Source: an uncultured Azospirillum sp. (GTDB lineage Bacteria > Pseudomonadota > Alphaproteobacteria > RF32 > CAG-239). From it: 64,000 nucleotides of DNA. The notes beneath the pieces are model-generated. The model was not told where the DNA came from. It did not search any database and saw only the letters and a list, made by a program, of their open reading frames with translations. The stretch is from the NCBI GenBank assembly GCA_902489795.1, contig CABUBU010000002.1, positions 13,207 through 77,206 of the forward strand, given 5' to 3'. A program made the translations under genes and the position numbers. This document shows, piece after piece, positions 6,469 through 57,090 of the stretch (position 1 is the first letter of the stretch; every line of letters starts with the position of its first letter).

Positions 6469-7485
6469 TTACCTGCCGAAAACGGCGTTTTTGAGGCGTT
6501 TGAGGGTGGCGCGGGCGACCGGTCGCGCTTTGGCGGCGCCTTCTTCCAGCATACCTTCCACCTCATCGTAGTGAGCCATGTAGTAGTTGTATTTTTCCCG
6601 GGCGTCTCTTATCTCGCTGACAACGGTATCAAGCAACATGTTTTTGATGTGACCGTAGCCGAGTCTGCCCTGTCGCAGGCCGTTGCCCATTTCCCGCAGT
6701 TGTTCGGGAGATGCGATGGATTTGTATATTTCATAAACCAGAATTTCGTCCGGGTTTTTGGGTTCTTCCATCGGCCGGGAGTCGGTTTTGATTGAAAAAA
6801 TGGCTTTCTTGATTGCCTTGTCGTCTTCAAACAGCGGGATGACGTTGCCGTAGGATTTGCTCATCTTGCGGCCGTCGATGCCGGGAACGACCGCCACGTT
6901 TTCGTCGATCGAATATTCCGGCAGCACCAACAATTGTTTGTTGTAATGGGCATTGATGGCGCCGGCGATGTCGCGGGCGATTTCCACGTGCTGCACCTGA
7001 TCCTTGCCGACCGGCACGATATCGGTGTCATAAGCAAGGATGTCGGCGGCCATCAGCGTGGGGTAAGTGTAAAGACCCATGTTGATGCCGTCGTCGTCGG
7101 GTTTGCCGGCTTCGCGGTTGCGGTCGACCGCGGCTTTGTAGGCGTGCGCCTTGTTCATAAAGCCTTTTGGCGTATAGGCATACAGGATGGTGGTGATTTC
7201 CGGAATTTCCGCAATGTCCGACTGACGATAGAAAACCGAACGGGAAGGGTCGAGGCCGGCAGCCAGGTAGATGCAGGCGATTTCTTTGAGTTTCTGGTTT
7301 AAGACCGCCGGGTCTTTCTCCGCGTTGATGGCATGATAATCGGCAATGAACATGTAATGTTTCCCGCCGGCGTCAAGCGCCTGATGTCCCAGCCGGATGG
7401 CCGGTTTGATGGCGCCGAGATAGTTGCCGAGATGCGGTGTTCCGGTCGGCTTCACACCGGTTAAAACTTTTTTGTCTTCAAACAT
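6469..7485 (-). CDS. trpS: tryptophan--tRNA ligase
   Basis: 338-aa ORF with class I signatures TGTPHLGNYLG (HIGH-type) and KMSKS, and TrpRS-like length and layout. Confidence 0.93.
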   Translation of the reverse strand: MFEDKKVLTGVKPTGTPHLGNYLGAIKPAIRLGHQALDAGGKHYMFIADYHAINAEKDPAVLNQKLKEIACIYLAAGLDPSRSVFYRQSDIAEIPEITTILYAYTPKGFMNKAHAYKAAVDRNREAGKPDDDGINMGLYTYPTLMAADILAYDTDIVPVGKDQVQHVEIARDIAGAINAHYNKQLLVLPEYSIDENVAVVPGIDGRKMSKSYGNVIPLFEDDKAIKKAIFSIKTDSRPMEEPKNPDEILVYEIYKSIASPEQLREMGNGLRQGRLGYGHIKNMLLDTVVSEIRDAREKYNYYMAHYDEVEGMLEEGAAKARPVARATLKRLKNAVFGR

Positions 7486-12803: not shown

Positions 12804-13277
12804 CCTGCTGCATATGTCTGTAATTTGCCGTTGAGTTTCAACCGGCGGCAGGCACCGGGCAGAACTTGCCGCTCAAGTTTATGCCGCACGATACAGCCAA
12901 AACAATGGCGGTTTTAACACAGCGGTTCGGAAAATGCATGAGTATAAATAGATACGGCTGACCTGCTGCATATGTCTGTAATTTGCCGTTGAGTTTCAAC
13001 CGGCGGCAGGCACCGGGCAGAACTTGCCGCTCAAGTTTATGCCGCACGATACAGCCAAAACAATGGCGGTTTTAACACAGCGGTTCGGAAAATGCATGAG
13101 TATAAATAGATACGGCTGACCTGCTGCATATGTCTGTAATTTGCCGTTGAGTTTCAACCGGCGGCAGGCACCGGGCAGAACTTGCCGCTCAAGTTTATGC
13201 CGCACGATACAGCCAAAACAATGGCGGTTTTAACACAGCGGTTCGAAAAATGCATGAGTATAAAAGATACGGCTGAA
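12640..13277 (+). repeat. tandem array: last ~160 bp of the LRR gene plus three downstream 158/158/156-bp copies
   Basis: TGACCTGCTG recurs at 12801, 12959 and 13117 (period 158), and the array ends at the TGA at 13273-13275. The two identical 69-aa track ORFs (12838..13047 and 12996..13205) show the downstream copies are essentially identical. The in-gene copy is clearly more divergent and carries indels. Confidence 0.9.
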
Positions 13278-13347: not shown

Positions 13348-13521
13348 GTTTTTTTATATTTCCTTTTTTCTTGTTTTTTCTTTCCCCTTGCTTCCTTCCT
13401 CTTTTTTCTTTCCGTTCCTCTATCTCTTTCCTCTTTTTTCTCTTCCCTTTGTTCTTGTTTTGCTCCTCTTTCCCTTGTTTTTACCTCTCTTTTTTTCTCT
13501 TCCTTTCTCTCTTTTTCCCCT
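13348..13521 (+). repeat. polypyrimidine (C/T) tract on the + strand
   Basis: About 170 bp made almost entirely of T and C with only scattered purines (tttttatatttccttttttcttgttttttctttcccc...ctctttttcccc). Confidence 0.9.
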
Positions 13522-13884
13522 GTGAGATTCAAAACAAATCAAAAATAATCAATCCGTTGAGCCATTCCGCATATCGCAAAGCTCACGCTTATATACCGAT
13601 AAGTTCTTCCCCATGGATAAAACTGTTATATCGAAACATTCTGACCACTATGCTGAATTTTCCCGGTTTTCGTGTCGAATTTGTTCCGGCATCTTATATT
13701 CTGTTTTGAGTCTTTCGCATCTTTTATTTTTTTCTCTTTTCTTTCCCGCTGTTTGGGTGAGATCCATGAATTTGCTCATTTTATTCGCTTGTAAAATGAC
13801 AGAGCAGGGTGGTTTCTGCTTATAGGCGACGGCTTTTTCTGTCATGATTCCGACAGGCGAGGCCTTGACGAATTGAGAAATTCT

Positions 13885-14545: not shown

Positions 14546-15010
14546 TCAGCGGATGTGTTCAAGGTAATAATCAAACCAAAACGAAGAGGTTATTTCCCAT
14601 TCCGGATACTGCTCAACGAAATAAACGTCAATATATGCCAGCATGAAAGCCGGGATGAAAAGAAAAACGGACGCGATCAGAATGAAAGTCTTATGCCACA
14701 GGTTGCGCGGGCAGAGGAAGTAATGCCGGTAAAAACGCCAGGCGATCCAAAGATATATAAACAGCAGTGCATAATGGACGGCCATATAAATATAAATGTT
14801 TCGTCCGTATGAGGCCGCACTGCGGAACACGCCGATATAAGCCCCGTCGACTTGTTTGAACAGGTAGCCGAAAAAAAGCAGCCATATGATCAAAAACGCC
14901 GAATTGAGCAGCAAATTATAGACGTTAACCAGCCAGACCGGAAAATGAATATCATCGTCTTCGGTAAAAAATGCGGCAATTTGTTCGTATTTTGTTTTTT
15001 TGTCAGTCAT
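14546..15010 (-). CDS. small multi-pass membrane protein, distant member of the island family
   Basis: 154-aa ORF with a loop ending GRNIYIY, SSFWFD near the C-terminus, and its own promoter at 15045-15073. Confidence 0.6.
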   Translation of the reverse strand: MTDKKTKYEQIAAFFTEDDDIHFPVWLVNVYNLLLNSAFLIIWLLFFGYLFKQVDGAYIGVFRSAASYGRNIYIYMAVHYALLFIYLWIAWRFYRHYFLCPRNLWHKTFILIASVFLFIPAFMLAYIDVYFVEQYPEWEITSSFWFDYYLEHIR

Positions 15011-15020
15011 AACAACCCCA

Positions 15021-15046
15021 CAGTTTGCAACGGTTTATGCAAACTG
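15021..15046. promoter_or_regulatory. perfect 9-bp inverted repeat CAGTTTGCA-N8-TGCAAACTG at the predicted transcription start
   Basis: Arms at 15021-15029 and 15038-15046. It overlaps the -10 by 2 nt and lies 11 nt upstream of the ATG at 15010. Confidence 0.5.
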
Positions 15047-15073
15047 TATAATACAAACGATTTTGTTTGTCAA
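15045..15073 (-). promoter_or_regulatory. sigma70-like promoter of the 154-aa membrane-protein gene
   Basis: Minus strand reads TTGACA (15073-15068), a 17-nt spacer, then TATACA (15050-15045). The upstream context CAACTTTTAATTGACA matches the other island promoters. Confidence 0.55.
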
Positions 15074-16565: not shown

Positions 16566-16976
16566 TTATTGTGCCCAAAAGGCCGTATACGTTCCTGAAC
16601 GGAAAAAAGGCAAAAGCTGAACGCCGCTATATGCCGGAAACAGCAGAAAAGCGCAAATAAGCGAGCAGAATATTGCCCATACTTTTAATTTTAGGGAAGT
16701 GTGAGAACTAAACAGCATTTTGCCGAATTTATAACAACAATAAGGGTAAACCGCGGTAAGCAGTATGGCGTATAAAGTATCCGCATAAATGTTGCCCTTG
16801 GGGTCGGTTATTCCCGGAATAACAAATGAAAGATATAACCGTAAAAGATACAGAAAGAAAACTCCTCACCCGAGGACAAAGATAATCTGCATTATCAATA
16901 CGGCGGTTGCGGAAAGAGGGTTTTGTTTAAAGTTGCTGATGTATTCTTTGCCATAGGCAGCGATTTTGTTTTTCAT
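16566..16976 (-). pseudogene. island-family paralog disrupted by one in-frame TGA
   Basis: Own translation: MKNKIAAYGKEYISNFKQNPLSATAVLIMQIIFVLG*GVFFLYLL...TAFWAQ. It is 137 codons, the same length as the 17157 paralog. The stop replaces the Trp of the conserved LGWG motif (TGG->TGA). Confidence 0.8.
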
Positions 16977-17009
16977 TTTGTTTATTCTCAATAACGTTTG
17001 GCAAGCGGT

Positions 17010-17024
17010 GTTCTGGTTTTGTTC
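17010..17024 (-). promoter_or_regulatory. LexA (SOS) box, alphaproteobacterial type GTTC-N7-GTTC
   Basis: + strand reads GTTC tggtttt GTTC, 33 nt upstream of the ATG at 16976. Confidence 0.55.
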
Positions 17025-17064
17025 TCTTTCGGGGTAAAAAAAACAATTCCTTAAATCTGTTCAA

Positions 17065-17093
17065 GAGATATAACGAAACTTTACTCCCGTCAA
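17065..17093 (-). promoter_or_regulatory. sigma70-like promoter of module copy 3
   Basis: Minus strand reads TTGACG (17093-17088), a 17-nt spacer, then TATCTC (17070-17065). Confidence 0.45.
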
Positions 17094-17156
17094 TCAAAAG
17101 TTGAAGCTTCTGTTTCGTTGTAACATATTTACTAGATTGAAAGCATTATAAATTTG

Positions 17157-17567
17157 TCAATCGGCCCAGAAAGCAACGCTGGTTTGCGGTAAAAAGAAAA
17201 CGGCTTCATTCAGCAGCAGCTGCAAAGGATATGCCAATATGGCACATAAAAGCGAAAGGGCTAAAATTATTACCTTTGGTTTAAGAGTATTGTTATTAAG
17301 AAAAAGAGTCCTAAAAGATTTGTAGATAAAAAACGAAAAGATAAAAGCGATGACTGTCAGCGAAAACGTTTCCGGATATATAGCGGTTTTGGTATATGTT
17401 CTGCCGGGAATGATATATCTTATGTATCTTTCACACAAGAAAGTATAAAAAGTTCCCCATCCGAGGATAAAGATAATCTGTATTATCAGTACGGCGGTTG
17501 CGGAAAGAGGGTTTTGTTTAAAGTTGTTAATATATTCTTTGCCGTAGGCGGCGATTTTGTTTTTCAT
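17157..17567 (-). CDS. island-family small membrane protein (136 aa from MKNK start)
   Basis: Track ORF 17157..17588. The start was moved to the MKNKIAAYG Met shared with the pseudogene copy, which lacks the upstream ATG. Motifs: LGWGTFY, PGRTYTKTAIY, YKSFRTLF, VAFWAD. Three to four predicted TM helices. Confidence 0.75.
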   Translation of the reverse strand: MKNKIAAYGKEYINNFKQNPLSATAVLIIQIIFILGWGTFYTFLCERYIRYIIPGRTYTKTAIYPETFSLTVIAFIFSFFIYKSFRTLFLNNNTLKPKVIILALSLLCAILAYPLQLLLNEAVFFLPQTSVAFWAD

Positions 17568-17600
17568 TTTATTTACTTTCAATGACATTTTGTGAAGTAT

Positions 17601-17615
17601 GTTCCTATTTTGTTC
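17601..17615 (-). promoter_or_regulatory. LexA (SOS) box GTTC-N7-GTTC
   Basis: + strand reads GTTC ctatttt GTTC, 33 nt upstream of ATG 17567 (12 nt upstream of the alternative ATG 17588). Confidence 0.55.
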
Positions 17616-17655
17616 TGTTTTGAGGCAAAAAAAACAATTTCTTAAACCTGTTCAA

Positions 17656-17684
17656 AAGATATAGTACAATTTTATTTCTGTCAA
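17656..17684 (-). promoter_or_regulatory. sigma70-like promoter of module copy 2
   Basis: Minus strand reads TTGACA (17684-17679), a 17-nt spacer, then TATCTT (17661-17656). Confidence 0.5.
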
Positions 17685-17741
17685 TCAAAGGTTGATTGCT
17701 TGTATTGCTTCGGTGTTTAAGGTTCAGAAGATAATGTTTGT

Positions 17742-18125
17742 TCAGACGAACAAGATCCCTAATGCCGAATAAAGTAATTCTGACAAAAAAGACCAAAAAA
17801 CAAGGCAGCAAAGCGAGTTTATTAACGCGGCCGTTTTTTCGGTAAAGGAACTGTTATTGCCAAACATAACTTTTGCCATTTTATAAGCAACATAAGTGTA
17901 GATTATAAAGATACCGCTTTCAGCAATAACCTTAATGTAAAAGTTTGTTTTGTCGGGAAAGTCTCCAAAGATATAATCGCTGAATTCTTTATAAAGAGTA
18001 TAATAATATACTCCCCATTCCGATAGGAAAAGAAAATAAAACATAAGGATAGCCAACAATCTGCCTGGGTGTTTACGGAAATTTGAAAAAGGCGTTTTTG
18101 TTGCAGGTAAAGTCTTTTGTGTCAT
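17742..18125 (-). CDS. island-family small membrane protein (127 aa)
   Basis: Motifs LSEWGVYYYTLY, DKTNFY, YKMAKVMF. The start overlaps the stop of the upstream paralog by 4 nt (ATGA), which suggests translational coupling. Confidence 0.7.
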   Translation of the reverse strand: MTQKTLPATKTPFSNFRKHPGRLLAILMFYFLFLSEWGVYYYTLYKEFSDYIFGDFPDKTNFYIKVIAESGIFIIYTYVAYKMAKVMFGNNSSFTEKTAALINSLCCLVFWSFLSELLYSALGILFV

Positions 18126-18547
18126 TTGTTCTCTCCGTCTTGTACAGCCCAGAAAGCGGTAGGTACGTTATCGCTGAAGCGGGGTATAAAACGCGCAATG
18201 CTGAACTCTCCCGAAATCAAAGCAAAAACGGCAGAAATGAGAACAGCATAAATTTTTAGACGGAAACCTTTGTTGATGGCAAACATATTCGGGAACAATC
18301 GGCAAAATATATAAGTATATACAAGAGTTTGAATTATAATGTCCGCGCATTCGACATAAATATTGCTTTTAGGTCCCGATTGCCCGGGAATAACAATTGT
18401 AATAATGTTGCCCAAAATATAGTAAAAATATACTCCCCATCCGAGGACAAAGATAATCTGCATTATCAGTACGGCGGTTGCGGAAAGAGGGTTTTGTTTA
18501 AAGTTGTTAATATATTCTTTGCCGTAGGCGGCGATTTTGTTTTTCAT
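18122..18547 (-). CDS. island-family small membrane protein (141 aa from MKNK start), first gene downstream of the toxin
   Basis: Track ORF 18122..18568. Motifs: LGWGVYFYY, PGQSGPKSNIY, TAFWAV. The first 36 residues from MKNK differ from the 17157 paralog at only 2 positions; the rest is divergent. Confidence 0.75.
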   Translation of the reverse strand: MKNKIAAYGKEYINNFKQNPLSATAVLIMQIIFVLGWGVYFYYILGNIITIVIPGQSGPKSNIYVECADIIIQTLVYTYIFCRLFPNMFAINKGFRLKIYAVLISAVFALISGEFSIARFIPRFSDNVPTAFWAVQDGENK

Positions 18548-18580
18548 TTTATTTACTTTCAATGACATTTTGTGAAGTAT

Positions 18581-18595
18581 GTTCCTATTTTGTTC
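18581..18595 (-). promoter_or_regulatory. LexA (SOS) box GTTC-N7-GTTC
   Basis: + strand reads GTTC ctatttt GTTC, 33 nt upstream of ATG 18547. Confidence 0.55.
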
Positions 18596-18635
18596 TGTTT
18601 TGAGGCAAAAAAAACAATTTCTTAAACCTGTTCAA

Positions 18636-18664
18636 AAGATATAGTGCAATTTTATTTCTGTCAA
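18636..18664 (-). promoter_or_regulatory. sigma70-like promoter of module copy 1
   Basis: Minus strand reads TTGACA (18664-18659), a 17-nt spacer, then TATCTT (18641-18636). Confidence 0.5.
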
Positions 18665-18738
18665 TCAAAAGTTGAAGAAAAAATGTTTTAGATAAAAATT
18701 TAATTGAAAAAATAATATGTACAATAATTGGTCGGCAT

Positions 18739-19473
18739 TTATTTTCTTCGTTTGTTCCAATCGTCATATTTATAGTTCACATAGATATCCATCGGATATT
18801 CGCTGGCGCGGATGAATTTTGCCACTTCATCCATACTGTCGGTTGTATCAATACAGCCGGCAGATCCGGGAACTTCGCCGCCGTGGAGATAAAAACCTTT
18901 GCGGTGCTTGGTGTCGGTGCGAAAATCGTCCGGTTCAAGCCTGATCCGATAATTCCCCCATGAGCGTGTTCCGCCCTGCCAGGGTGTTTCTCCGTTGGGG
19001 CCTCGCCAGCTGCGGCTTTCCTTTTCCGGCGAATAGGTCTGCAGTTCGTCCGGATTTAAGTGCCAAACGCCCTCGGGGATGGGACCGTGATTTTCAATTT
19101 CTGTTGCCGCACGGCTTTGATATCCGGGTTTCCCGGACATGGCGGGCCAGGATTTTAACGTTTTTTCATTATTAATTGCTGTCAGGGTTTGCCCGTCAAA
19201 TTCCATTTCCGGAATGTCTTCGGAACCAAAAGCGGGCCAAAAAGAAACCGGTTTGCCGTTCCGATACAGGGTAAAGGTTGAGCCGTCGCTTTTCAGCTCT
19301 ACGCGTGGTTTGGGCGTTTTCAATTCCATGTCGTCGTTGTAATCGGCAAGCTGCTGTTCGAGAAGTTCGCGCGTGGTCATTTCCTTTTTTGGCCGCGGCG
19401 TCATCTGGCTGCCTAATCCGTACATGTTCAACAGAGCCGTACGGATGTCGTCATCTTCTTCGTATCTACTCAT
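18739..19473 (-). CDS. DUF2778 / Tlde1-family L,D-transpeptidase-fold toxin-domain protein
   Basis: 244-aa ORF with no signal peptide and an acidic N-terminus. The C-terminal half carries the family hallmarks as I recall them: SWPAMSGKPGYQ...NHGPIPEGVWHL, and HRKGFYLHGGEVPGSAGCIDT (a His-x10-Cys pair in a YkuD-like arrangement). Confidence 0.8.
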   Translation of the reverse strand: MSRYEEDDDIRTALLNMYGLGSQMTPRPKKEMTTRELLEQQLADYNDDMELKTPKPRVELKSDGSTFTLYRNGKPVSFWPAFGSEDIPEMEFDGQTLTAINNEKTLKSWPAMSGKPGYQSRAATEIENHGPIPEGVWHLNPDELQTYSPEKESRSWRGPNGETPWQGGTRSWGNYRIRLEPDDFRTDTKHRKGFYLHGGEVPGSAGCIDTTDSMDEVAKFIRASEYPMDIYVNYKYDDWNKRRK

Positions 19474-19494
19474 TTCATATTCCTTTGCAAATTG

Positions 19495-19521
19495 AAAAAA
19501 AGCGCCGGAAAGTTCCGGCGC
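19495..19521 (-). terminator. intrinsic terminator 21 nt upstream of the toxin start codon
   Basis: Stem GCGCCGG (19502-19508) / CCGGCGC (19515-19521). On the minus strand it is followed by TTTTTTT and then caatttgcaaaggaatatgaaATG. Confidence 0.65.
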
Positions 19522-19590
19522 GGGTTAAATAAAAAACTCCCGGCGCGATGTTGATGAGCGATGTAGCGAAGAAAGGAGCCACGCCGGAAG

Positions 19591-19617
19591 AAAAGCGCCC
19601 TTCAAATCCGCAGGGCG
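19591..19617 (-). terminator. terminator-like hairpin (weak U tract)
   Basis: Stem CGCCCT (19596-19601) / AGGGCG (19612-19617). On the minus strand it is followed by CTTTTCTT. Confidence 0.35.
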
Positions 19618-19627
19618 GAAAAAGGGC

Positions 19628-19654
19628 ACAAAAAAAGGCGGGAAAAACCGCCTT
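19628..19654 (-). terminator. intrinsic terminator downstream of the 157-aa membrane-protein gene
   Basis: Stem AAGGCGG (19635-19641) / CCGCCTT (19648-19654). On the minus strand it is followed by TTTTTTGTG. Confidence 0.65.
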
Positions 19655-19813
19655 GTCATAAATACGGCCTACCAACCGCATTATGGAAATAATCTATAAC
19701 ATAAACAGACGAAAAAATCAATAAAAACTCGCAACGGTTGTGGATAACTGTCCGCGTCAAATAAAACGGCAGTTTGCCGGCCGGGAGTTTCCGCGGGAGA
19801 ATGGGCGGATTTG

Positions 19814-20287
19814 TCAGCCGCGGGTGCGGACGAAACGAACGATGTCTGCGTCGGCCCAGGGGGTAAATTCAACTGCGGCAAGGTCGGGAAGAAGGGAGGA
19901 AAAACCTTCTTCAAGAAGCGGCAGCAGCCATGAAATCAGCAGAGCGATACCGGCTGAGCACAACAAAATCAGCGTTTTTTTGCCGAGTCCCACTTTTTCG
20001 ACGAACATGCCGCGAAAAAAATACATAAAAGGCGGCACCGACAGTGCCAGGGTTACGGCAATTTCGAACATAACCATATAAACGCCGGAGCAGGGAACTT
20101 CCGGCAAAGAAAAGTCGCAATAGCAGCCTTTGGCAAGCACCGTGATCAGGACATGTCCGAGTTCGGTGAAAAAGAACCACCAGCCGGCGGCAAAAACGAA
20201 ATCAAGGGCGCGGCCGACCGGCTTTCCGGCGGCGTTTTCGCGCGGCGCCCGGTAAGAATAGGAAGGGGTAAAGCGTTTGTCCATCAT
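19814..20287 (-). CDS. island-family small membrane protein (157 aa), upstream of the toxin
   Basis: Motifs AAGWWFFF, SGVYMVMF, YFFRGMF, EFTPWAD. Three to four hydrophobic helices. GC is higher than in the downstream paralogs. Confidence 0.7.
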   Translation of the reverse strand: MMDKRFTPSYSYRAPRENAAGKPVGRALDFVFAAGWWFFFTELGHVLITVLAKGCYCDFSLPEVPCSGVYMVMFEIAVTLALSVPPFMYFFRGMFVEKVGLGKKTLILLCSAGIALLISWLLPLLEEGFSSLLPDLAAVEFTPWADADIVRFVRTRG

Positions 20288-36477: not shown

Positions 36478-38382
36478 ATGAAAAAGCTATTGATATCTTT
36501 GTTGGTTCCGGTTGTGTTCGCGGCTTCCTGCGGGCAGAACGGCACCGTAAGTTCTCCCGATCCGGCCGGTTACGCTCCGGAAGCCGTCCTTTATAACGAT
36601 TGGGACCGCGCCGTCCGTATTGACGTCGACATGCAAAACATGTATGTCAGCACGCCGACCAAAATCGAAAAGCCGATCGACCTCTACATGTCGATGGCCT
36701 TGGCGCTCAAATACAACTATACCCGCCGGCTGATTACTTACGAAGACAGCATCATCCGCGCCGGCCGTTCGCCGGTCAACCGCCTGCCGGAAATCGTCAG
36801 CCACGCCGGCTACATCAACGACACCAACTCCAGCATGAGCCCGGATCTGAAAGTGGCCTGGAACATGCTTGACATTTCCATGGTTTACTGCCTCAGCCAG
36901 GACAAGGAGTATAAGGCGAGCGTCGCTTTTGAGGAAAGCCGCAAGGTTATTCACAACATTTTGCAGGAAACCCGCACCCTTTATTGGAAAACGCTGACCG
37001 CCCAGCGGTTGCTGCCGGTGATCGACGACATGACCGAGTTCATGACTTTGGAGGTTGACGATATGAATGCCAAAGCCAAAGAGCTGGAAAAGAAAGGCGA
37101 AGCGCCGGAAGTGGCTCAGCTGGTCAAGAAAAGACAATATATGGAAGCGATCAAAAACCTTTCCGCGCTCAAACGCGATATGGAAACGGCGCAGACCCGT
37201 CTGGCCAGCCTGATGGGGCTGCATCCTTCGACGGAGTTCAAACTGGTCGGTTCCGAATACGGCAATTTCGATTTGCCGAAAATCCGCAATTCCCTGGCTG
37301 ATCTGGAATGGCTGGCATTGAGCAACCGTCCCGAACTGCGCGAGCACGACCTGGCGGTCAATGCCGAACGGATGAAGCTGATTATCAAAGACTTTAAAGA
37401 CCCGGGGCTGAAGAAATACAAAAACGATCCGGACTTTTACAATCGTCTGTGGTCCAAGCAGGCCCGCGAACTCGGCATGAGCGTGTTTGAAGATCCCGCC
37501 AGTCCGAATGTTTTGGATATGGAGCATCTGCGCCGCCAGCGGATGACCGCCCTGATTTTGAGCCAGGTTTACGTGGCCTGGGCGCAGTATATGTCGGCGG
37601 TGGAAGACTACCAGATCAATATGGAAATCGCCTCCACTTCCGAAAACATTGCCGAAGATTTTACGATTGCCGACGGCAGCAAGGCTGAAAAAAGCCAGCT
37701 GGAAGCTTCCCGCGCGATTGAAGACGAGGTCAAAGCGTTCAAGTCCTATGCCGACTTGCAGGAATCTCTCGGCAACCTCTATGCCACCATCGGGCTGGAT
37801 GCTATTCCGTATTACATGCTGAACGAAAAACCCTCCAAAATTGCCGTTTACCTGCGCAATACGCTGGAGAAATGGGGTAAGGGTGATTTTATGCCCGACA
37901 ACCGTCCGTATCTGTTGAACATTCCGGCCAAACGTCCGCCGGTCAACCTCAGTTCCGATACGCTTTTGCCCGACGTCAAAGGCGAAACCGGCAAAAAGAT
38001 TACGGTAAAAGTTCCCGATTCGGCGCTTGCTCGGATGGATTTTGAGGGCAAAGTCATCAGCCGCGCCGGCACCATCGACGACAAGCCGCTGCCAAAATGG
38101 CTGACTTACAATGAGGAGACCCGCACCTTTAACGGAACGGCCATGCCCGGACAGGAAGGAACATATAACCTGAAAGTATACTTCAGTGACGAAAAGGGCA
38201 ACGTGGCCTACATGACCTTTAAGATTGTGATCAAGGAGGTTTACATTCCCTCGCTGACGGTCAAAGGACAGGTGCCGGGCAGTACCGCCACCGTACTGAA
38301 ACGCTGTGTCGGATCCAACTGCAAAGACGACTATATCATTGAAGAAGCCGTCGGCAACGATATCCGCACTTCCGCTCAGTAA
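36478..38382 (+). CDS. outer-membrane lipoprotein with a TolC/OEP-like region and a C-terminal cadherin-like (dystroglycan-type Ig) domain
   Basis: Start moved to MKKLLISLLVPVVFAASCGQ (lipobox AASC). OEP-like helical repeats (ALALKYNYT..., TAQTRLASLMGL). C-terminal KPLPKWLTYNEETRTFNGTAMPGQEGTYNLKVYFSDEKGN. Confidence 0.65.
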   Translation: MKKLLISLLVPVVFAASCGQNGTVSSPDPAGYAPEAVLYNDWDRAVRIDVDMQNMYVSTPTKIEKPIDLYMSMALALKYNYTRRLITYEDSIIRAGRSPVNRLPEIVSHAGYINDTNSSMSPDLKVAWNMLDISMVYCLSQDKEYKASVAFEESRKVIHNILQETRTLYWKTLTAQRLLPVIDDMTEFMTLEVDDMNAKAKELEKKGEAPEVAQLVKKRQYMEAIKNLSALKRDMETAQTRLASLMGLHPSTEFKLVGSEYGNFDLPKIRNSLADLEWLALSNRPELREHDLAVNAERMKLIIKDFKDPGLKKYKNDPDFYNRLWSKQARELGMSVFEDPASPNVLDMEHLRRQRMTALILSQVYVAWAQYMSAVEDYQINMEIASTSENIAEDFTIADGSKAEKSQLEASRAIEDEVKAFKSYADLQESLGNLYATIGLDAIPYYMLNEKPSKIAVYLRNTLEKWGKGDFMPDNRPYLLNIPAKRPPVNLSSDTLLPDVKGETGKKITVKVPDSALARMDFEGKVISRAGTIDDKPLPKWLTYNEETRTFNGTAMPGQEGTYNLKVYFSDEKGNVAYMTFKIVIKEVYIPSLTVKGQVPGSTATVLKRCVGSNCKDDYIIEEAVGNDIRTSAQ

Positions 38383-44327: not shown

Positions 44328-46964
44328 ATGTTAGACAAGACTTACGATCCGAAAAATTTTGAAGAAAAAATTTATGCCGAATGGGAAGCCGCCGGCGATT
44401 TCAAACCGAACATGAACAAAAACAAGGAAGCCTTTGCCGTTGTCATTCCGCCGCCGAATGTTACCGGTGTTTTGCACATGGGACACGCGCTGGACGACAC
44501 TTTGCAGGATATCCTTATCCGTTATAACCGTATGCTCGGCAAAAATGTTTTGTGGCAGCCCGGTATGGATCACGCCGGCATCGCCACGCAGATGGTGGTT
44601 GAGCGCAATCTTGCTGCGGAAGGAGTTACCCGCCACGATCTCGGCCGAGAAAAGTTTATTGAAACCGTCTGGCAGTGGAAGGAAAAGTCCGGCGGCACCA
44701 TTTGCAGGCAATTGCGGCGCCTGGGCGCTTCCTGCGACTGGTCGCGGGCACGCTTCACCATGGACGAAGGTCTGTCTCGGGCAGTGCGCAAAATTTTTGT
44801 CCGCCTCTATAAGGACGGTTTAATTTACAAGGCAAAAAAACTGGTCAACTGGGATTCGAAATTCATGACCGCAGTTTCCGATCTGGAAGTTGTGCAAAAA
44901 GAAACCGTCGGCAAAATGTACTATTACAAATACCCGATTAAAGGGGAAGAAGGCGAATTTGTTCATATTGCCACCACCCGCCCGGAAACCATGTTCGGCG
45001 ATACCGCGGTTGCCGTTTCCAAAGACAATGAAAAGTTAAAACACCTGATCGGAAAAGAGTGCATTATTCCGATCATCAACCGGGCGATTCCGATCGTGGC
45101 CGATGACCATGCCGACCCTGAAAAGGGAACCGGTGCGGTTAAAATTACCCCGGCGCACGATTTCAACGACTTTGAAGTCGGCAAACGTCATAACCTGCCG
45201 CTGATCAATATCCTGAATCCGGACGCAACCTTAAACGAAAATACGCCGTTTGCCGGCATGGATACTCAAAGTGCGCGCAAGGCGACCATTGCCAAACTGG
45301 AAGAACTGGGCTTTATGGAAAAGATCGAAGATCACCCGATGGTTATCCCATACGGCGACCGTTCCAACGTGGTGATCGAACCGATGCTGACCGACCAGTG
45401 GTTCGTTGACGCGCCGACGCTGGCCAAAGAGGCGATTCGCGCGGTTGAAGACGGGGAAATGCAGTTTGTGCCGAAGTCTTATGAGAAAACTTATTTCGAA
45501 TGGATGCGCAATATTCAGCCGTGGTGCATTTCTCGCCAATTGTGGTGGGGGCACCAGATGCCGATCTGGTACGGTCCAGACGGCGAGATATTCTGCGAGG
45601 AAAACGAAGAGGAAGCGCAGGCGGCGGCCGACAGACATTATGGAACCCAGGTTGAACTGACACGCGAAACCGACGTGCTCGATACCTGGTTTTCTTCCGG
45701 CCTGTGGGCTTTTTCGACTTTGGGCTGGCCGGACAAAAGCGAATATCTGGATACTTTTTACCCGACTTCGGTTCTCGTTACCGGTTTTGACATCATTTTC
45801 TTCTGGGTGGCCCGGATGATGATGATGAGCATGTATATAATGAAAAAAGTGCCGTTCAAAAAAGCCTATATTCACGGTCTGGTTCGCGACGAACAGGGAC
45901 GCAAAATGTCCAAGTCCAAAGGTAATACCGTCGATCCGATGGAAATCATCGAAAAGTACGGTGCCGACGCTTTGCGCTTCTTCATGGCGGCAATGGAAAC
46001 CCAGGGGCGAGACATCAACGTTTCCGAGGCCAGAATTCAGGGCTACCGCAACTTTGCCACCAAACTGTGGAACTCTGCTCGTTTCGGCGAAATGAACGAA
46101 TGCGCGCTGCCTGTGGATTTTGACGAAAACGGTGTTAAGCACCCGGTCAACCGCTGGATTGTTGCCAAGGTTAAGGAAGCAACCGTCGAGCTGACCGAAA
46201 ATCTTGACAGCTTTCGCTTTTCCGACGCCGCCAATACCGTTTACCAGTTTGTCTGGGGGGCGTTCTGCGACTGGTATATCGAAATGATCAAACCGATTTT
46301 GTACGGCAGCAACGAAGAGGAAAAGGCGGAAACCCGCGCGGCGTTTGCATGGGTTTTAAATCGTATTTTGGTTATTTTGCATCCGTTTATGCCGTTTATT
46401 ACCAGCGAGCTGTGGAACAATACCGGCACCCGCAATGAGCGTCTGATTAATGCTTCCTGGCCGAAAAACGAGAGTTTTGACACCGCAGCCATCGGCGACA
46501 TCGACTGGGTGATTGAACTGATCGGTTCAATCCGTTCGCTCCGGGCGGAAATGAATTTGCCGGCCGGTGCCAAGCTGACGGTTCTGCTGAAAGACGCCAA
46601 TGCGGATTCGCTGACGCATCTGCTGCGCTTCAAACCGATCATTTGCTCTCTGGCGCGGTTGGAAGACATCTGCGGCTATGAGGACGAAATTACGCCCGAC
46701 ATGGTACAAAGCGTTTTCCGCGAAGCCTCGCTTTTGATCCCGCTTAAGGGGGTGGTCGATTTCGCCGCTGAGCGCGAGCGCTTGCAAAAGGAACTGGCCG
46801 GGCTGGAGCAAAATCTTGCCGGTTACGAGCGCAAACTGTCGAACCCGAATTTTGTCGAGCGCGCCCCGGCCGCGGTGGTTGAGGAAGAAAAGCGCCGTCG
46901 GGCGGAGGCTTTGGAGAATAAAGCCAAAGTTGAGGAAGCGCTGGCGCGGATCGTCGGGCTGTAA
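44328..46964 (+). CDS. valS: valine--tRNA ligase
   Basis: 878-aa ORF with PPPNVTGVLHMGHAL (HIGH), KMSKSKGN, and a C-terminal coiled coil. Confidence 0.97.
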   Translation: MLDKTYDPKNFEEKIYAEWEAAGDFKPNMNKNKEAFAVVIPPPNVTGVLHMGHALDDTLQDILIRYNRMLGKNVLWQPGMDHAGIATQMVVERNLAAEGVTRHDLGREKFIETVWQWKEKSGGTICRQLRRLGASCDWSRARFTMDEGLSRAVRKIFVRLYKDGLIYKAKKLVNWDSKFMTAVSDLEVVQKETVGKMYYYKYPIKGEEGEFVHIATTRPETMFGDTAVAVSKDNEKLKHLIGKECIIPIINRAIPIVADDHADPEKGTGAVKITPAHDFNDFEVGKRHNLPLINILNPDATLNENTPFAGMDTQSARKATIAKLEELGFMEKIEDHPMVIPYGDRSNVVIEPMLTDQWFVDAPTLAKEAIRAVEDGEMQFVPKSYEKTYFEWMRNIQPWCISRQLWWGHQMPIWYGPDGEIFCEENEEEAQAAADRHYGTQVELTRETDVLDTWFSSGLWAFSTLGWPDKSEYLDTFYPTSVLVTGFDIIFFWVARMMMMSMYIMKKVPFKKAYIHGLVRDEQGRKMSKSKGNTVDPMEIIEKYGADALRFFMAAMETQGRDINVSEARIQGYRNFATKLWNSARFGEMNECALPVDFDENGVKHPVNRWIVAKVKEATVELTENLDSFRFSDAANTVYQFVWGAFCDWYIEMIKPILYGSNEEEKAETRAAFAWVLNRILVILHPFMPFITSELWNNTGTRNERLINASWPKNESFDTAAIGDIDWVIELIGSIRSLRAEMNLPAGAKLTVLLKDANADSLTHLLRFKPIICSLARLEDICGYEDEITPDMVQSVFREASLLIPLKGVVDFAAERERLQKELAGLEQNLAGYERKLSNPNFVERAPAAVVEEEKRRRAEALENKAKVEEALARIVGL

Positions 46965-51311: not shown

Positions 51312-51968
51312 TCAGTGATATTTGCGTACGATGCCGCTTAAAATCCCCTGCACTTTCACCCGCGAAGGATGCAGTTTGCGGGTTTCGTACGCGGGATTGC
51401 AGGGTTTCAGCCAGATTTCGTCTTTTTTCTTTTGCCAGACTTTGAGCGTTGCCTCGGCATCATCGATGAGGGCGACGACAATTTGTCCGTTTTCGGCGTT
51501 TTCGGCTTTGCGGATGATGGCGGTGTCGCCGTCTAAGATGCCGGCTTCGATCATGGATTCTCCTTCAATCGTCAGGGCGTAGAATTTGCCCCGGCTGACC
51601 ATGTTGAGAGGAACGGTGATGCTTTCGTTTTCGTCGGCGATGGCGGCGATCGGCGTGCCGGCGGCGATTTTGCCGTAAAGGGGAATTTGGATTGCCGCCC
51701 CCTGCAGCGCCTGCTTGATTTTCTTTTCTTCCTCGATGATTTCCCGCGGTTTGAAGCGGGGAATGCGCAGAACTTCAAGCGCACGAGCCTTGTGCGGCAG
51801 CTTTTTGACGAAGTCGCGTTCGATCAGCTCTTCGATCAGGGCGTGGATGCCTGATTTCGATTTGATGCCCACCGCCTGTTTCATCTCTTCAAAAGAAGGG
51901 CAGCAGCCGTTTTCCTTGATCGAATTGTCGATAAACATCAGCAGCTTGTATTGTTTCGGGGTCAGCAT
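51312..51968 (-). CDS. lexA: LexA repressor
   Basis: 218-aa ORF with an N-terminal winged HTH (LTPKQYKLLMFI...), the cleavage-site region, and S24 peptidase motifs GESM and ATLK. Length and linker are typical of alphaproteobacterial LexA. Confidence 0.95.
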   Translation of the reverse strand: MLTPKQYKLLMFIDNSIKENGCCPSFEEMKQAVGIKSKSGIHALIEELIERDFVKKLPHKARALEVLRIPRFKPREIIEEEKKIKQALQGAAIQIPLYGKIAAGTPIAAIADENESITVPLNMVSRGKFYALTIEGESMIEAGILDGDTAIIRKAENAENGQIVVALIDDAEATLKVWQKKKDEIWLKPCNPAYETRKLHPSRVKVQGILSGIVRKYH

Positions 51969-52004: not shown

Positions 52005-52019
52005 GTTCTACTTTAGTTC
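52005..52019 (-). promoter_or_regulatory. LexA (SOS) box GTTC-N7-GTTC upstream of lexA
   Basis: + strand reads GTTC tacttta GTTC, 36 nt upstream of the lexA ATG (51968). Confidence 0.7.
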
Positions 52020-52091
52020 TTTGTCGCCGTCAAGCAATTATTAGGTTGAAAAGTTTTCGGCTTTTGTTTATAGTGACGGAAAAACAAACGA

Positions 52092-52106
52092 GAACTTGAA
52101 AAGAAC
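52092..52106 (+). promoter_or_regulatory. second LexA-type box (GAAC-N7-GAAC on + strand)
   Basis: GAAC ttgaaaa GAAC, 12 nt upstream of the lysS ATG (52119) and about 125 nt upstream of the lexA ATG. Confidence 0.5.
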
Positions 52107-56553: not shown

Positions 56554-57090
56554 ACGTGCCGTCGTTCGTCTGGTGCAAAAACTCTCTATTCGGGAAGTTT
56601 ATTCATGTTTCGAACATCTGTATAAACAGATAACAGGGATATTCTTCCCCAAAAAAGACTGAAGAAACTCTTGGGCGGACGAACGTGGTTTATAGCAGTC
56701 GATGCATTTTGCGCTGACTGGTGGACGTTTACGATGATGGGCGGTTTTCCGCGGGAAGGCCGGCCGTGATGATCTGCTTAAGCTCATGCGCGCCGGTCGG
56801 CTATAGTCCGGGTTGCCCGGTTTATCCGGTTGCGGGCGAAAAGGTGGCGGCAGAATTGGAAAAAGCCAGCTATTCGGAATTTCCGAATACCTGGGAATGG
56901 ATCGGCCGGATTGATAAACTCCGGCAGGAACTGGAGGTGTGCAATTCAGCTAAGTCATAGACAAAAAGCACAATCCGACTCGCTGATTGTTCTTGTCCTG
57001 TTCTGTGATTTTCATTCTGACTCGGTTTGCTAACTATTTGAAGTTATTTGCAGGTAATTTGCATAAAAAAGTCAGAATGAAGAGAGCGGC

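Follow-up and report, generated by a model that had tools for sequence, protein, structure and literature searches.

The 64 kb stretch of DNA analyzed here (the window, in which all positions are counted) comes from a human-gut alphaproteobacterium that is known only from metagenomes. It contains an island in which a gene for a YkuD/Tlde1-like toxin is followed by an array of paralogous genes for small membrane proteins, and our subject is the direct repeat GTTC-N7-GTTC, the motif of alphaproteobacterial LexA operators, that lies in the leaders of the three paralogs A, B, and C. The toxin gene (18739-19473, minus strand) encodes 244 amino acids (aa) with L,D-transpeptidase-type domains; it matches PF03734 with 31.5 bits (cut-off 23.4; 3e-7) and PF10908 with 27.2 bits, slightly under the cut-off of 30.1 (6e-6), and its homologs bear both domains. 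Paralog C (18122-18547, minus strand) encodes an immunity-like small membrane protein of 141 aa. Its stop codon is overlapped by a 127-aa gene (17742-18125, minus strand) that has no leader of its own and is probably co-transcribed with it. Paralog B (17157-17567, minus strand) encodes 136 aa when read from the second ATG, and paralog A (16566-16976, minus strand) is inactivated by one in-frame change of TGG to TGA at codon 37 (16866-16868), being otherwise 90% identical to the intact homolog P0009. The paralogs (about 136-141 aa) have no Pfam match, and only 16 homologs were found in a large protein collection.

A search of the window for the pattern GTTCNNNNNNNGTTC (GTTC-N7-GTTC) finds all three of the leader boxes that the initial annotation had reported, at 17010, 17601, and 18581. 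The LexA-like box A (17010-17024), in the leader of the inactivated paralog A, reads GTTCTGGTTTTGTTC on the plus strand and GAACAAAACCAGAAC in the minus-strand orientation of the gene; boxes B (17601-17615) and C (18581-18595), in the leaders of paralogs B and C, share a single sequence, which is GTTCCTATTTTGTTC on the plus strand and GAACAAAATAGGAAC in gene orientation (minus strand). Box A is identical to the other two at 12 of 15 positions, with both half-sites intact and the flanks diverged. The paralog genes lie on the minus strand and the boxes thus read GAAC-N7-GAAC in gene orientation, like the box in front of lexA, and the distance from box to ATG is 33 nt at all three leaders (ATGs at 18547, 17567, and 16976) and 36 nt at lexA (ATG at 51968); the similarity in orientation and placement that had been claimed is therefore real. 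The ATGs used for these distances are the second ones (MKNKIAAYG...), which are the likely start codons because the in-frame ATG upstream (18568 and 17588) is mutated in copy A.

The window holds eight matches to GTTC-N7-GTTC as against 2.58 +/- 1.63 in shuffled sequences, or six once the three leader copies are collapsed to one family. Three matches elsewhere were judged to be chance occurrences and not LexA sites: one at 36505 inside a lipoprotein signal peptide, one at 45643 within valS, and one at 56989 that is intergenic, beside tRNA-Leu, and has no target open reading frame.

The host LexA and the quality of the leader boxes

The window encodes a LexA of its own (51312-51968, minus strand; 218 aa) with the PF01726 and PF00717 domains and a TIGR00498 match at 1e-47. 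It is 98% identical to the LexA of the metagenome-assembled genome 'Azospirillum sp. 51_20', and its next relatives are from uncultured gut and rumen Alphaproteobacteria. The lexA operator (52005-52019, minus strand) reads GAACTAAAGTAGAAC in gene orientation and is placed between a -35 sequence TTGACG and an inferred -10 sequence TAGAAC, overlapping the latter. The same 15 nt, spacer included, are present in 57 of 80 related lexA loci, and three more differ by one spacer base; in those loci too the operator lies between a TTGAC -35 sequence and the inferred -10 sequence (TAGAAC), overlapping the -10. In more distant lexA promoters (Acetobacter, Hellea, and Robiginitomaculum) this place is taken by other GAAC-N7-GAAC boxes, and the recognition-helix residues SKSGIH and ARALEV of the LexA helix-turn-helix are invariant out to Hyphomonadaceae and Acetobacter. 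With a canonical LexA and a lexA operator that is nearly invariant in about 60 related genomes, GTTC-N7-GTTC is, as the initial annotation held, the right LexA motif for this host. No core SOS gene other than lexA (recA, uvrA, imuA, and so on) lies within the 64 kb.

Some variation on this theme occurs near lexA. In a subclade of gut and rumen relatives (loci among L022-L042, for example L027, L028, and L037-L040) the second operator half, GTAGAACA, recurs inverted as TGTTCTAC 10-20 nt downstream of the operator half, followed by a T-run, in a region about 20-70 nt upstream of lexA; the pair would make a terminator-like hairpin in the 5′ untranslated region of lexA with the operator as its 5′ arm. 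L023-L026 and L032-L036 have GAAC-N7-GTAC in place of the direct repeat. The window also has a second GTTC-N7-GTTC between lexA and lysS (52092-52106; a minus-strand match of opposite orientation, 13.6 bits), in the lysS leader about 18 nt past the predicted lysS -10 (TTGAAA-17-TATAGT, 52046-52074) and 12 nt ahead of the lysS ATG. It is common only to the closest relative, L002, and as a LexA site we set it aside as probably a chance match.

The quality of the leader boxes was measured with a position weight matrix built from the 32 LexA boxes of Caulobacter SOS promoters that are listed with chromatin immunoprecipitation peak heights (PMC12700426 Table S6), scanning both strands of the window. 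With this matrix, which is that of Caulobacter and not of the host clade, the three leader boxes take ranks 1 to 3 in the window (21.3 bits for B and C and 20.6 bits for A), as one would expect if the proposal of LexA boxes were correct. The next sites reach 17.6 and 17.4 bits and the lexA operator 15.1 bits. The Caulobacter training sites span 13.1-22.2 bits, so that the leader boxes fall in their upper half, and the commonest allele in the population, GTTCCTGTTTTGTTC (spacer CTGTTTT), scores 22.6 bits. The leader spacers, CTATTTT, TGGTTTT, or most commonly CTGTTTT, can be compared with the Caulobacter consensus GTTC-yTGtTwT-GTTC; because the spacer fits too, the match goes far beyond the bare 8-base motif. 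From the exact score distribution, with the T-rich composition included, only 0.005-0.026 sites of at least 20.5 bits are expected per 128,000 strand positions, and 484 kb of related genomes contain no site of at least 20 bits outside the lexA promoters and only two that reach 15 bits.

Judged by sequence, then (motif, presence of a host LexA, match statistics, and the conservation described below), the leader boxes qualify as alphaproteobacterial SOS boxes. Since they outscore the lexA operator (21-22.6 bits vs 15.1), they are predicted to be tightly occupied and released late in the SOS response.

Conservation and architecture of the leaders

Each box is part of a repeat module of 242 nt, comprising the leader and the first ~115 nt of coding sequence, of which the window has three copies. 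With the copy at 17454-17695 as reference, identity is 98% for the one at 18434-18675 and 83% for the one at 16863-17104. The initial annotation placed much weight on conservation across these three leaders. It was correct that both half-sites are intact in copy A, but the weight is small, because two of the copies are recent duplicates and the third, at 83% identity, would keep all eight half-site bases by chance with P of about 0.22.

More informative are leaders from other assemblies, which were gathered blind to the box, with the -35 block and the ATG as anchors. The 72 copies comprise 34 distinct variants, all 34 of which have the first GAAC intact and 32 the second. Distant islands, reached through toxin homologs, also have the box: L117, whose toxin is 82% identical, carries GAACAAAACAAGAAC (22.8 bits), L120, with a toxin allele only 47% identical, carries GAACAAAACAGGAAC (22.6 bits), and L124 (genome GCA_018263635.1) carries GAACAAATTGCGAAC (19.0 bits), in which four of the seven spacer bases are changed (spacer AAATTGC) and both half-sites are intact. 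The sequence between promoter and box in L117, L124, and L082:5425 cannot be aligned with that of the main leader type, and there only the -35, the -10, the T-run, and the box itself persist. Altogether the box is retained in eight diverged leader lineages. Variation falls on spacer positions 5-8 (in GTTC orientation) and never on the half-sites or on the three T's that lead into the second GTTC, which parallels the information profile of the Caulobacter matrix.

In L124 we also note (at 6944-6975) that the immunity-like gene downstream of the box has a T-run one base longer than in L117 (TTTTT vs TTTT), which leads to an early frameshift stop; sequencing error, a pseudogene, and slippage-prone phase variation are all candidates for its origin.

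The leaders have a common architecture. Leaders C and B contain a predicted sigma-70 promoter, TTGACA-17-TATCTT, found by a promoter scan on the minus strand (running from 18664 to 18636 and from 17684 to 17656, respectively), and leader A has TTGACG-17-TATCTC (17065-17093, minus strand), which was read from the sequence and the alignment. A run of eight T's, a U-run in the transcript, lies at 18607-18614 (minus strand) and ends 11 nt before box C, and the equivalent T-runs of leaders B and A are at 17627-17634 and 17036-17043 on the same strand. In leaders B and C the box starts 40 nt after the predicted -10, in agreement with the caveat of the initial annotation that the boxes are downstream of the promoter it had predicted. 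The -35/-10 pair is retained in 8/8 lineages (TTGACG/TATTAT, TTGACA/TATGTT, TTGACT/TATGAT, and others), and across the eight the distance to the start of the box is 39-45 nt from the end of the -10 and 10-12 nt from the end of the T-run (4-8 T's). The distance from box end to ATG is 14, 18, 33, or 48 nt. Because the spacings to promoter and T-run are fixed while that to the ATG varies, the box seems tied to the former, and this points to a DNA-level element connected with transcription and not with the ribosome site. Ahead of the T-run there is a short hairpin in four lineages; in the main type it is weak.

Several other motifs that touch the box were considered and discarded. An EcfG-type promoter (GGAAC...CGTT) over the box would have a spacing of 13 nt, which is too short, and the CGTT is missing in L117 and L124. 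An antisense promoter, ATGACA-18-TATTTT on the plus strand at 17582-17611 and 18562-18591 with its -10 within the box spacer, exists only with the CTATTTT allele and not with the commoner CTGTTTT. A CsrA-type GGA motif in ACAGGAAC is lost in the CCAGAAC, CAAGAAC, and CAGAAAC variants.

The toxin gene and the remainder of the island

The island occurs in many human-gut assemblies in the order HAD hydrolase gene, 157-aa gene, toxin gene, array, and then 313-aa, 154-aa, and 109-aa genes. Assemblies differ in how many paralogs they have and in what order, which is what one would expect of a polymorphic toxin/orphan-immunity array, and in L118 the array is absent altogether. Conservation is much higher in the leader and the first ~115 nt of coding sequence than in the remainder of each paralog gene, and not every paralog has a leader (L082 has tandem genes 35 nt apart with no module between them). 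It is the context that suggests the immunity role. The island encodes no DNA-binding regulator or recombinase gene, and no type VI secretion system (T6SS) genes were recognized among the large proteins of the window. In some homologs of the toxin domain (P0027-P0029 and P0040-P0042) a Phage_Mu_F domain (PF04233) is joined to the N-terminus, a fusion that points to phage-like particles as the means of delivery in other lineages.

The initial annotation predicted SOS control of the island as a whole, and this is too broad: neither the toxin gene nor the 157-aa gene has an upstream site of at least 11 bits, and several paralogs are leaderless. The only matrix match in that neighborhood, 10.7 bits at 20003, is inside the coding sequence of the 157-aa gene, and all of the boxes are downstream of the toxin gene. 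At most, then, control would reach the promoters of the immunity-like paralogs, and an SOS-regulated bacteriocin-type (colicin-type) toxin operon is excluded because the toxin gene is not behind a box.

The gap between the 157-aa gene and the toxin gene (19475-19813, minus strand) has three intrinsic-terminator-like hairpins with T-runs (19779-19767, 19654-19635, and 19521-19502), the last of which ends 29 nt short of the toxin ATG. The two genes have no predicted sigma-70-like promoter between them, and the Rfam matches there are below threshold. Candidate routes for transcription of the toxin gene are read-through, antitermination, and an atypical promoter.

On the other side of the array, the 154-aa gene has a near-box, GTTCGTATTTTGTTT (14983-14997, plus strand; 15.9 bits), which is AAAC-N7-GAAC in gene orientation and falls within codons 5-9. 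It lies about 50 nt past that gene's own promoter, TTTAATTGACA-17-TATTAT, and is preceded by a perfect 10-bp hairpin (around 15027-15054). The near-box is conserved in distant islands (L118:7210 and L124:8341), for which the protein-coding function of the sequence could account. Six of the ten best matrix matches in the window are inside 13.4-18.8 kb, all in the same orientation. Two further repeats lie nearby. A 107-nt direct repeat is present in two copies that are 99% identical (13000-13106 and 13158-13264), and T/C-rich repeats of 26-28 nt at 13350-13754 correspond to a lysine/glutamate/arginine-rich open reading frame of 104 aa that is called in related loci.

LexA as a probable downstream repressor, alternatives, and known systems

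On balance we favor the leader boxes being functional LexA operators that act downstream of the promoter. The host's own LexA would bind GAAC-N7-GAAC in the transcribed leaders of the immunity-like paralogs, downstream of each sigma-70 promoter. The box starts about 34 nt past the predicted transcription start and 11 bp past the T8 run, clear of the -35 and -10, and bound LexA may thus block the elongating RNA polymerase as a roadblock instead of preventing polymerase binding; a roadblock is preferred to occlusion because the box is at about +34 to +48 and no nearer promoter is apparent. LexA is among the proteins reported to stop elongating RNA polymerase (reviewed in PMC10310618). The gap of 10-12 bp after the U-run would set the active site of the stalled polymerase on or near the U-run, and this might favor release of the transcript. 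Upon DNA damage, RecA-stimulated self-cleavage of LexA would lift the block and raise expression of the leader-bearing units, namely paralog C with the 127-aa gene, paralog B, and the dead paralog A; the toxin gene and the leaderless paralogs would stay outside direct LexA control. We regard as rather unlikely the stronger proposal that the leaders are a dedicated design for LexA control of a strain-variable array of orphan immunity-like genes, in which a short hairpin with U-run comes after a constitutive sigma-70 promoter and a high-affinity LexA operator comes next at a fixed 10-12 bp, which would amount to roadblock-assisted attenuation by which damage turns on protection against an L,D-transpeptidase-type toxin. 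If true, it would give a new LexA operator geometry and a new link between SOS and interbacterial defense in the human gut.

Several observations weigh against action by LexA. The box is at about +34 to +48 of the predicted transcript, whereas the lexA operator of the same genome overlaps its promoter; promoter overlap, a usual if not strictly defining feature of LexA operators, is lacking in the leader boxes. Inspection by eye of the leaders of all the lineages shows no closer promoter, and the stretch from the -10 to the box is likewise empty in the promoter scan. The scores were obtained with the Caulobacter matrix, and the clade's own motif is seen at lexA only. Two leaders, L082:3303 and L091:1491, carry AAAC as second half-site (16.6 bits) and yet head intact genes. 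All of the leaders stem from one ancestral module that recombination has homogenized, which leaves the lineages less than fully independent. The toxin gene, like the 157-aa gene, lacks an upstream site down to 11 bits in the scan of the window. Repressing immunity-type genes in undamaged cells is also biologically odd and contrary to toxin-immunity logic; the oddity would be resolved either by basal expression through read-through from upstream or by the paralogs having a role beyond simple immunity.

Could the box be conserved for a reason unrelated to function? A single chance match in the ancestral leader, arisen perhaps by an 11-nt tandem duplication (CAAAACAGAA / CAAAACAGGAA), might have been copied by gene duplication and gene conversion. 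The three window copies do represent one evolutionary event, all eight half-site bases would stay intact at 83% identity with P of about 0.22, one of the copies heads a dead gene, two lineages tolerate a broken half-site, and 17-bit sites with no plausible target exist at 36505 and 56989. Nevertheless, we find this explanation improbable, given the very low number of sites of at least 20.5 bits expected per window (0.005-0.026), the lack of any of at least 20 bits outside lexA promoters in the 484 kb of related DNA, and the persistence of the box, with conserved promoter spacing, in L117, L124, and L082:5425 despite leaders that cannot be aligned.

Alternatively, the repeat may be a conserved element that something other than LexA uses, either another regulator that recognizes direct repeats spaced by 11 bp (a response regulator, for example) or a recombination or homogenization signal in cassette shuffling. 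The strain-variable arrays and the excess conservation of the leader with its ~115 nt of coding sequence do imply recombination between modules, the spacer AAA after the first GAAC is invariant as well, and a position downstream of the promoter is atypical for LexA. However, recombinase and regulator genes are absent from the island, the spacer bases that never vary are exactly those that the Caulobacter LexA matrix prefers, and a LexA score in the top quartile would be an unlikely coincidence; moreover, recombination explains homogenized blocks but not a block of 15-19 nt that survives in randomized leaders. We think such a use quite improbable. Action at the RNA level, through an unstructured A/CA-rich 5′ untranslated region that aids ribosome or chaperone binding or as one arm of a leader structure with the U-run, is highly improbable. 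The box would be transcribed if the predicted promoter is real, and the minimum-free-energy fold has weak pairing between the U-run and the A-rich box, but the folding of the predicted leader is no more stable than that of shuffled sequences (-7.6 kcal/mol, z = +0.64), the eight lineages have no fold in common and no Rfam match was found, the distance from box to ATG varies (14-48 nt) while that to the promoter is fixed, and it is the GAAC half-sites and not A-richness in general that are conserved. On these grounds (folding, Rfam, shared fold, and ATG distance) an RNA element was rejected as the main explanation.

If LexA does bind the leader boxes, the SOS regulon of a widespread uncultured gut alphaproteobacterium would gain a variable set of immunity-like membrane proteins whose array adjoins a cell-wall toxin gene, and DNA damage, by antibiotics or phage induction for example, would become linked to interbacterial defense. 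An operator fixed just past a U-run would also be a testable case of LexA acting on elongation and not on initiation. If LexA does not bind, this is an ordinary repeated leader within a toxin-immunity island.

The colicin operons of Gammaproteobacteria are SOS controlled, with LexA boxes of the motif CTGT-N8-ACAG shortly after the -10; there the toxin gene is regulated and the immunity gene is often expressed from a constitutive promoter. The present island resembles them in having a LexA-type operator at a toxin/immunity locus, located after the -10 and not over the -35, and differs in that the box is found on the immunity-like paralogs only, with none at the toxin gene, and is of the GAAC-N7-GAAC class. 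With transcriptional roadblock repression, as practiced by LacI, CodY, CcpA, and PurR, the leaders share a repressor site inside the transcribed leader and well past the promoter; here, in contrast, the site is at a fixed 10-12 bp after a U-run, and this fixed spacing suggests coupling to an intrinsic pause or terminator. To our knowledge, LexA control has not been described as involving such coupling.

Orphan immunity arrays adjoin effectors of the T6SS type, as in Tlde1/Tldi1 of Salmonella and the acquired defense islands of gut Bacteroidales. The order of a Tlde1/YkuD-like toxin gene and then a strain-variable paralog array with repeated intergenic modules is much the same here, except that the paralogs are multi-pass membrane proteins outside any Pfam family and not periplasmic like Tldi1, and that neither T6SS nor recombinase genes were seen in the window. 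We found nothing relevant in the literature that links LexA to Tlde1-type loci or to orphan immunity arrays.

The closest comparison is with the alphaproteobacterial LexA operator itself, as in the SOS regulons of Caulobacter crescentus, Rhodobacter, and Sinorhizobium, with which the leader boxes (GTTCCTGTTTTGTTC or GTTCCTATTTTGTTC) share the half-sites, the 7-nt spacing, and the preferred spacer bases. The host lexA is canonical and self-regulated, and the boxes precede the start codon by a few tens of nt, which is inside the range of Caulobacter, where LexA boxes are found from -133 to +107 relative to the start codon (PMC12700426). They differ from such operators in being about 35-50 nt past the predicted transcription start instead of over the promoter, and in having as targets small membrane proteins of a toxin-associated array and not repair or replication genes. 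The boxes would thus be a probable new member of the SOS regulon with an operator of known type and a geometry that is possibly new.

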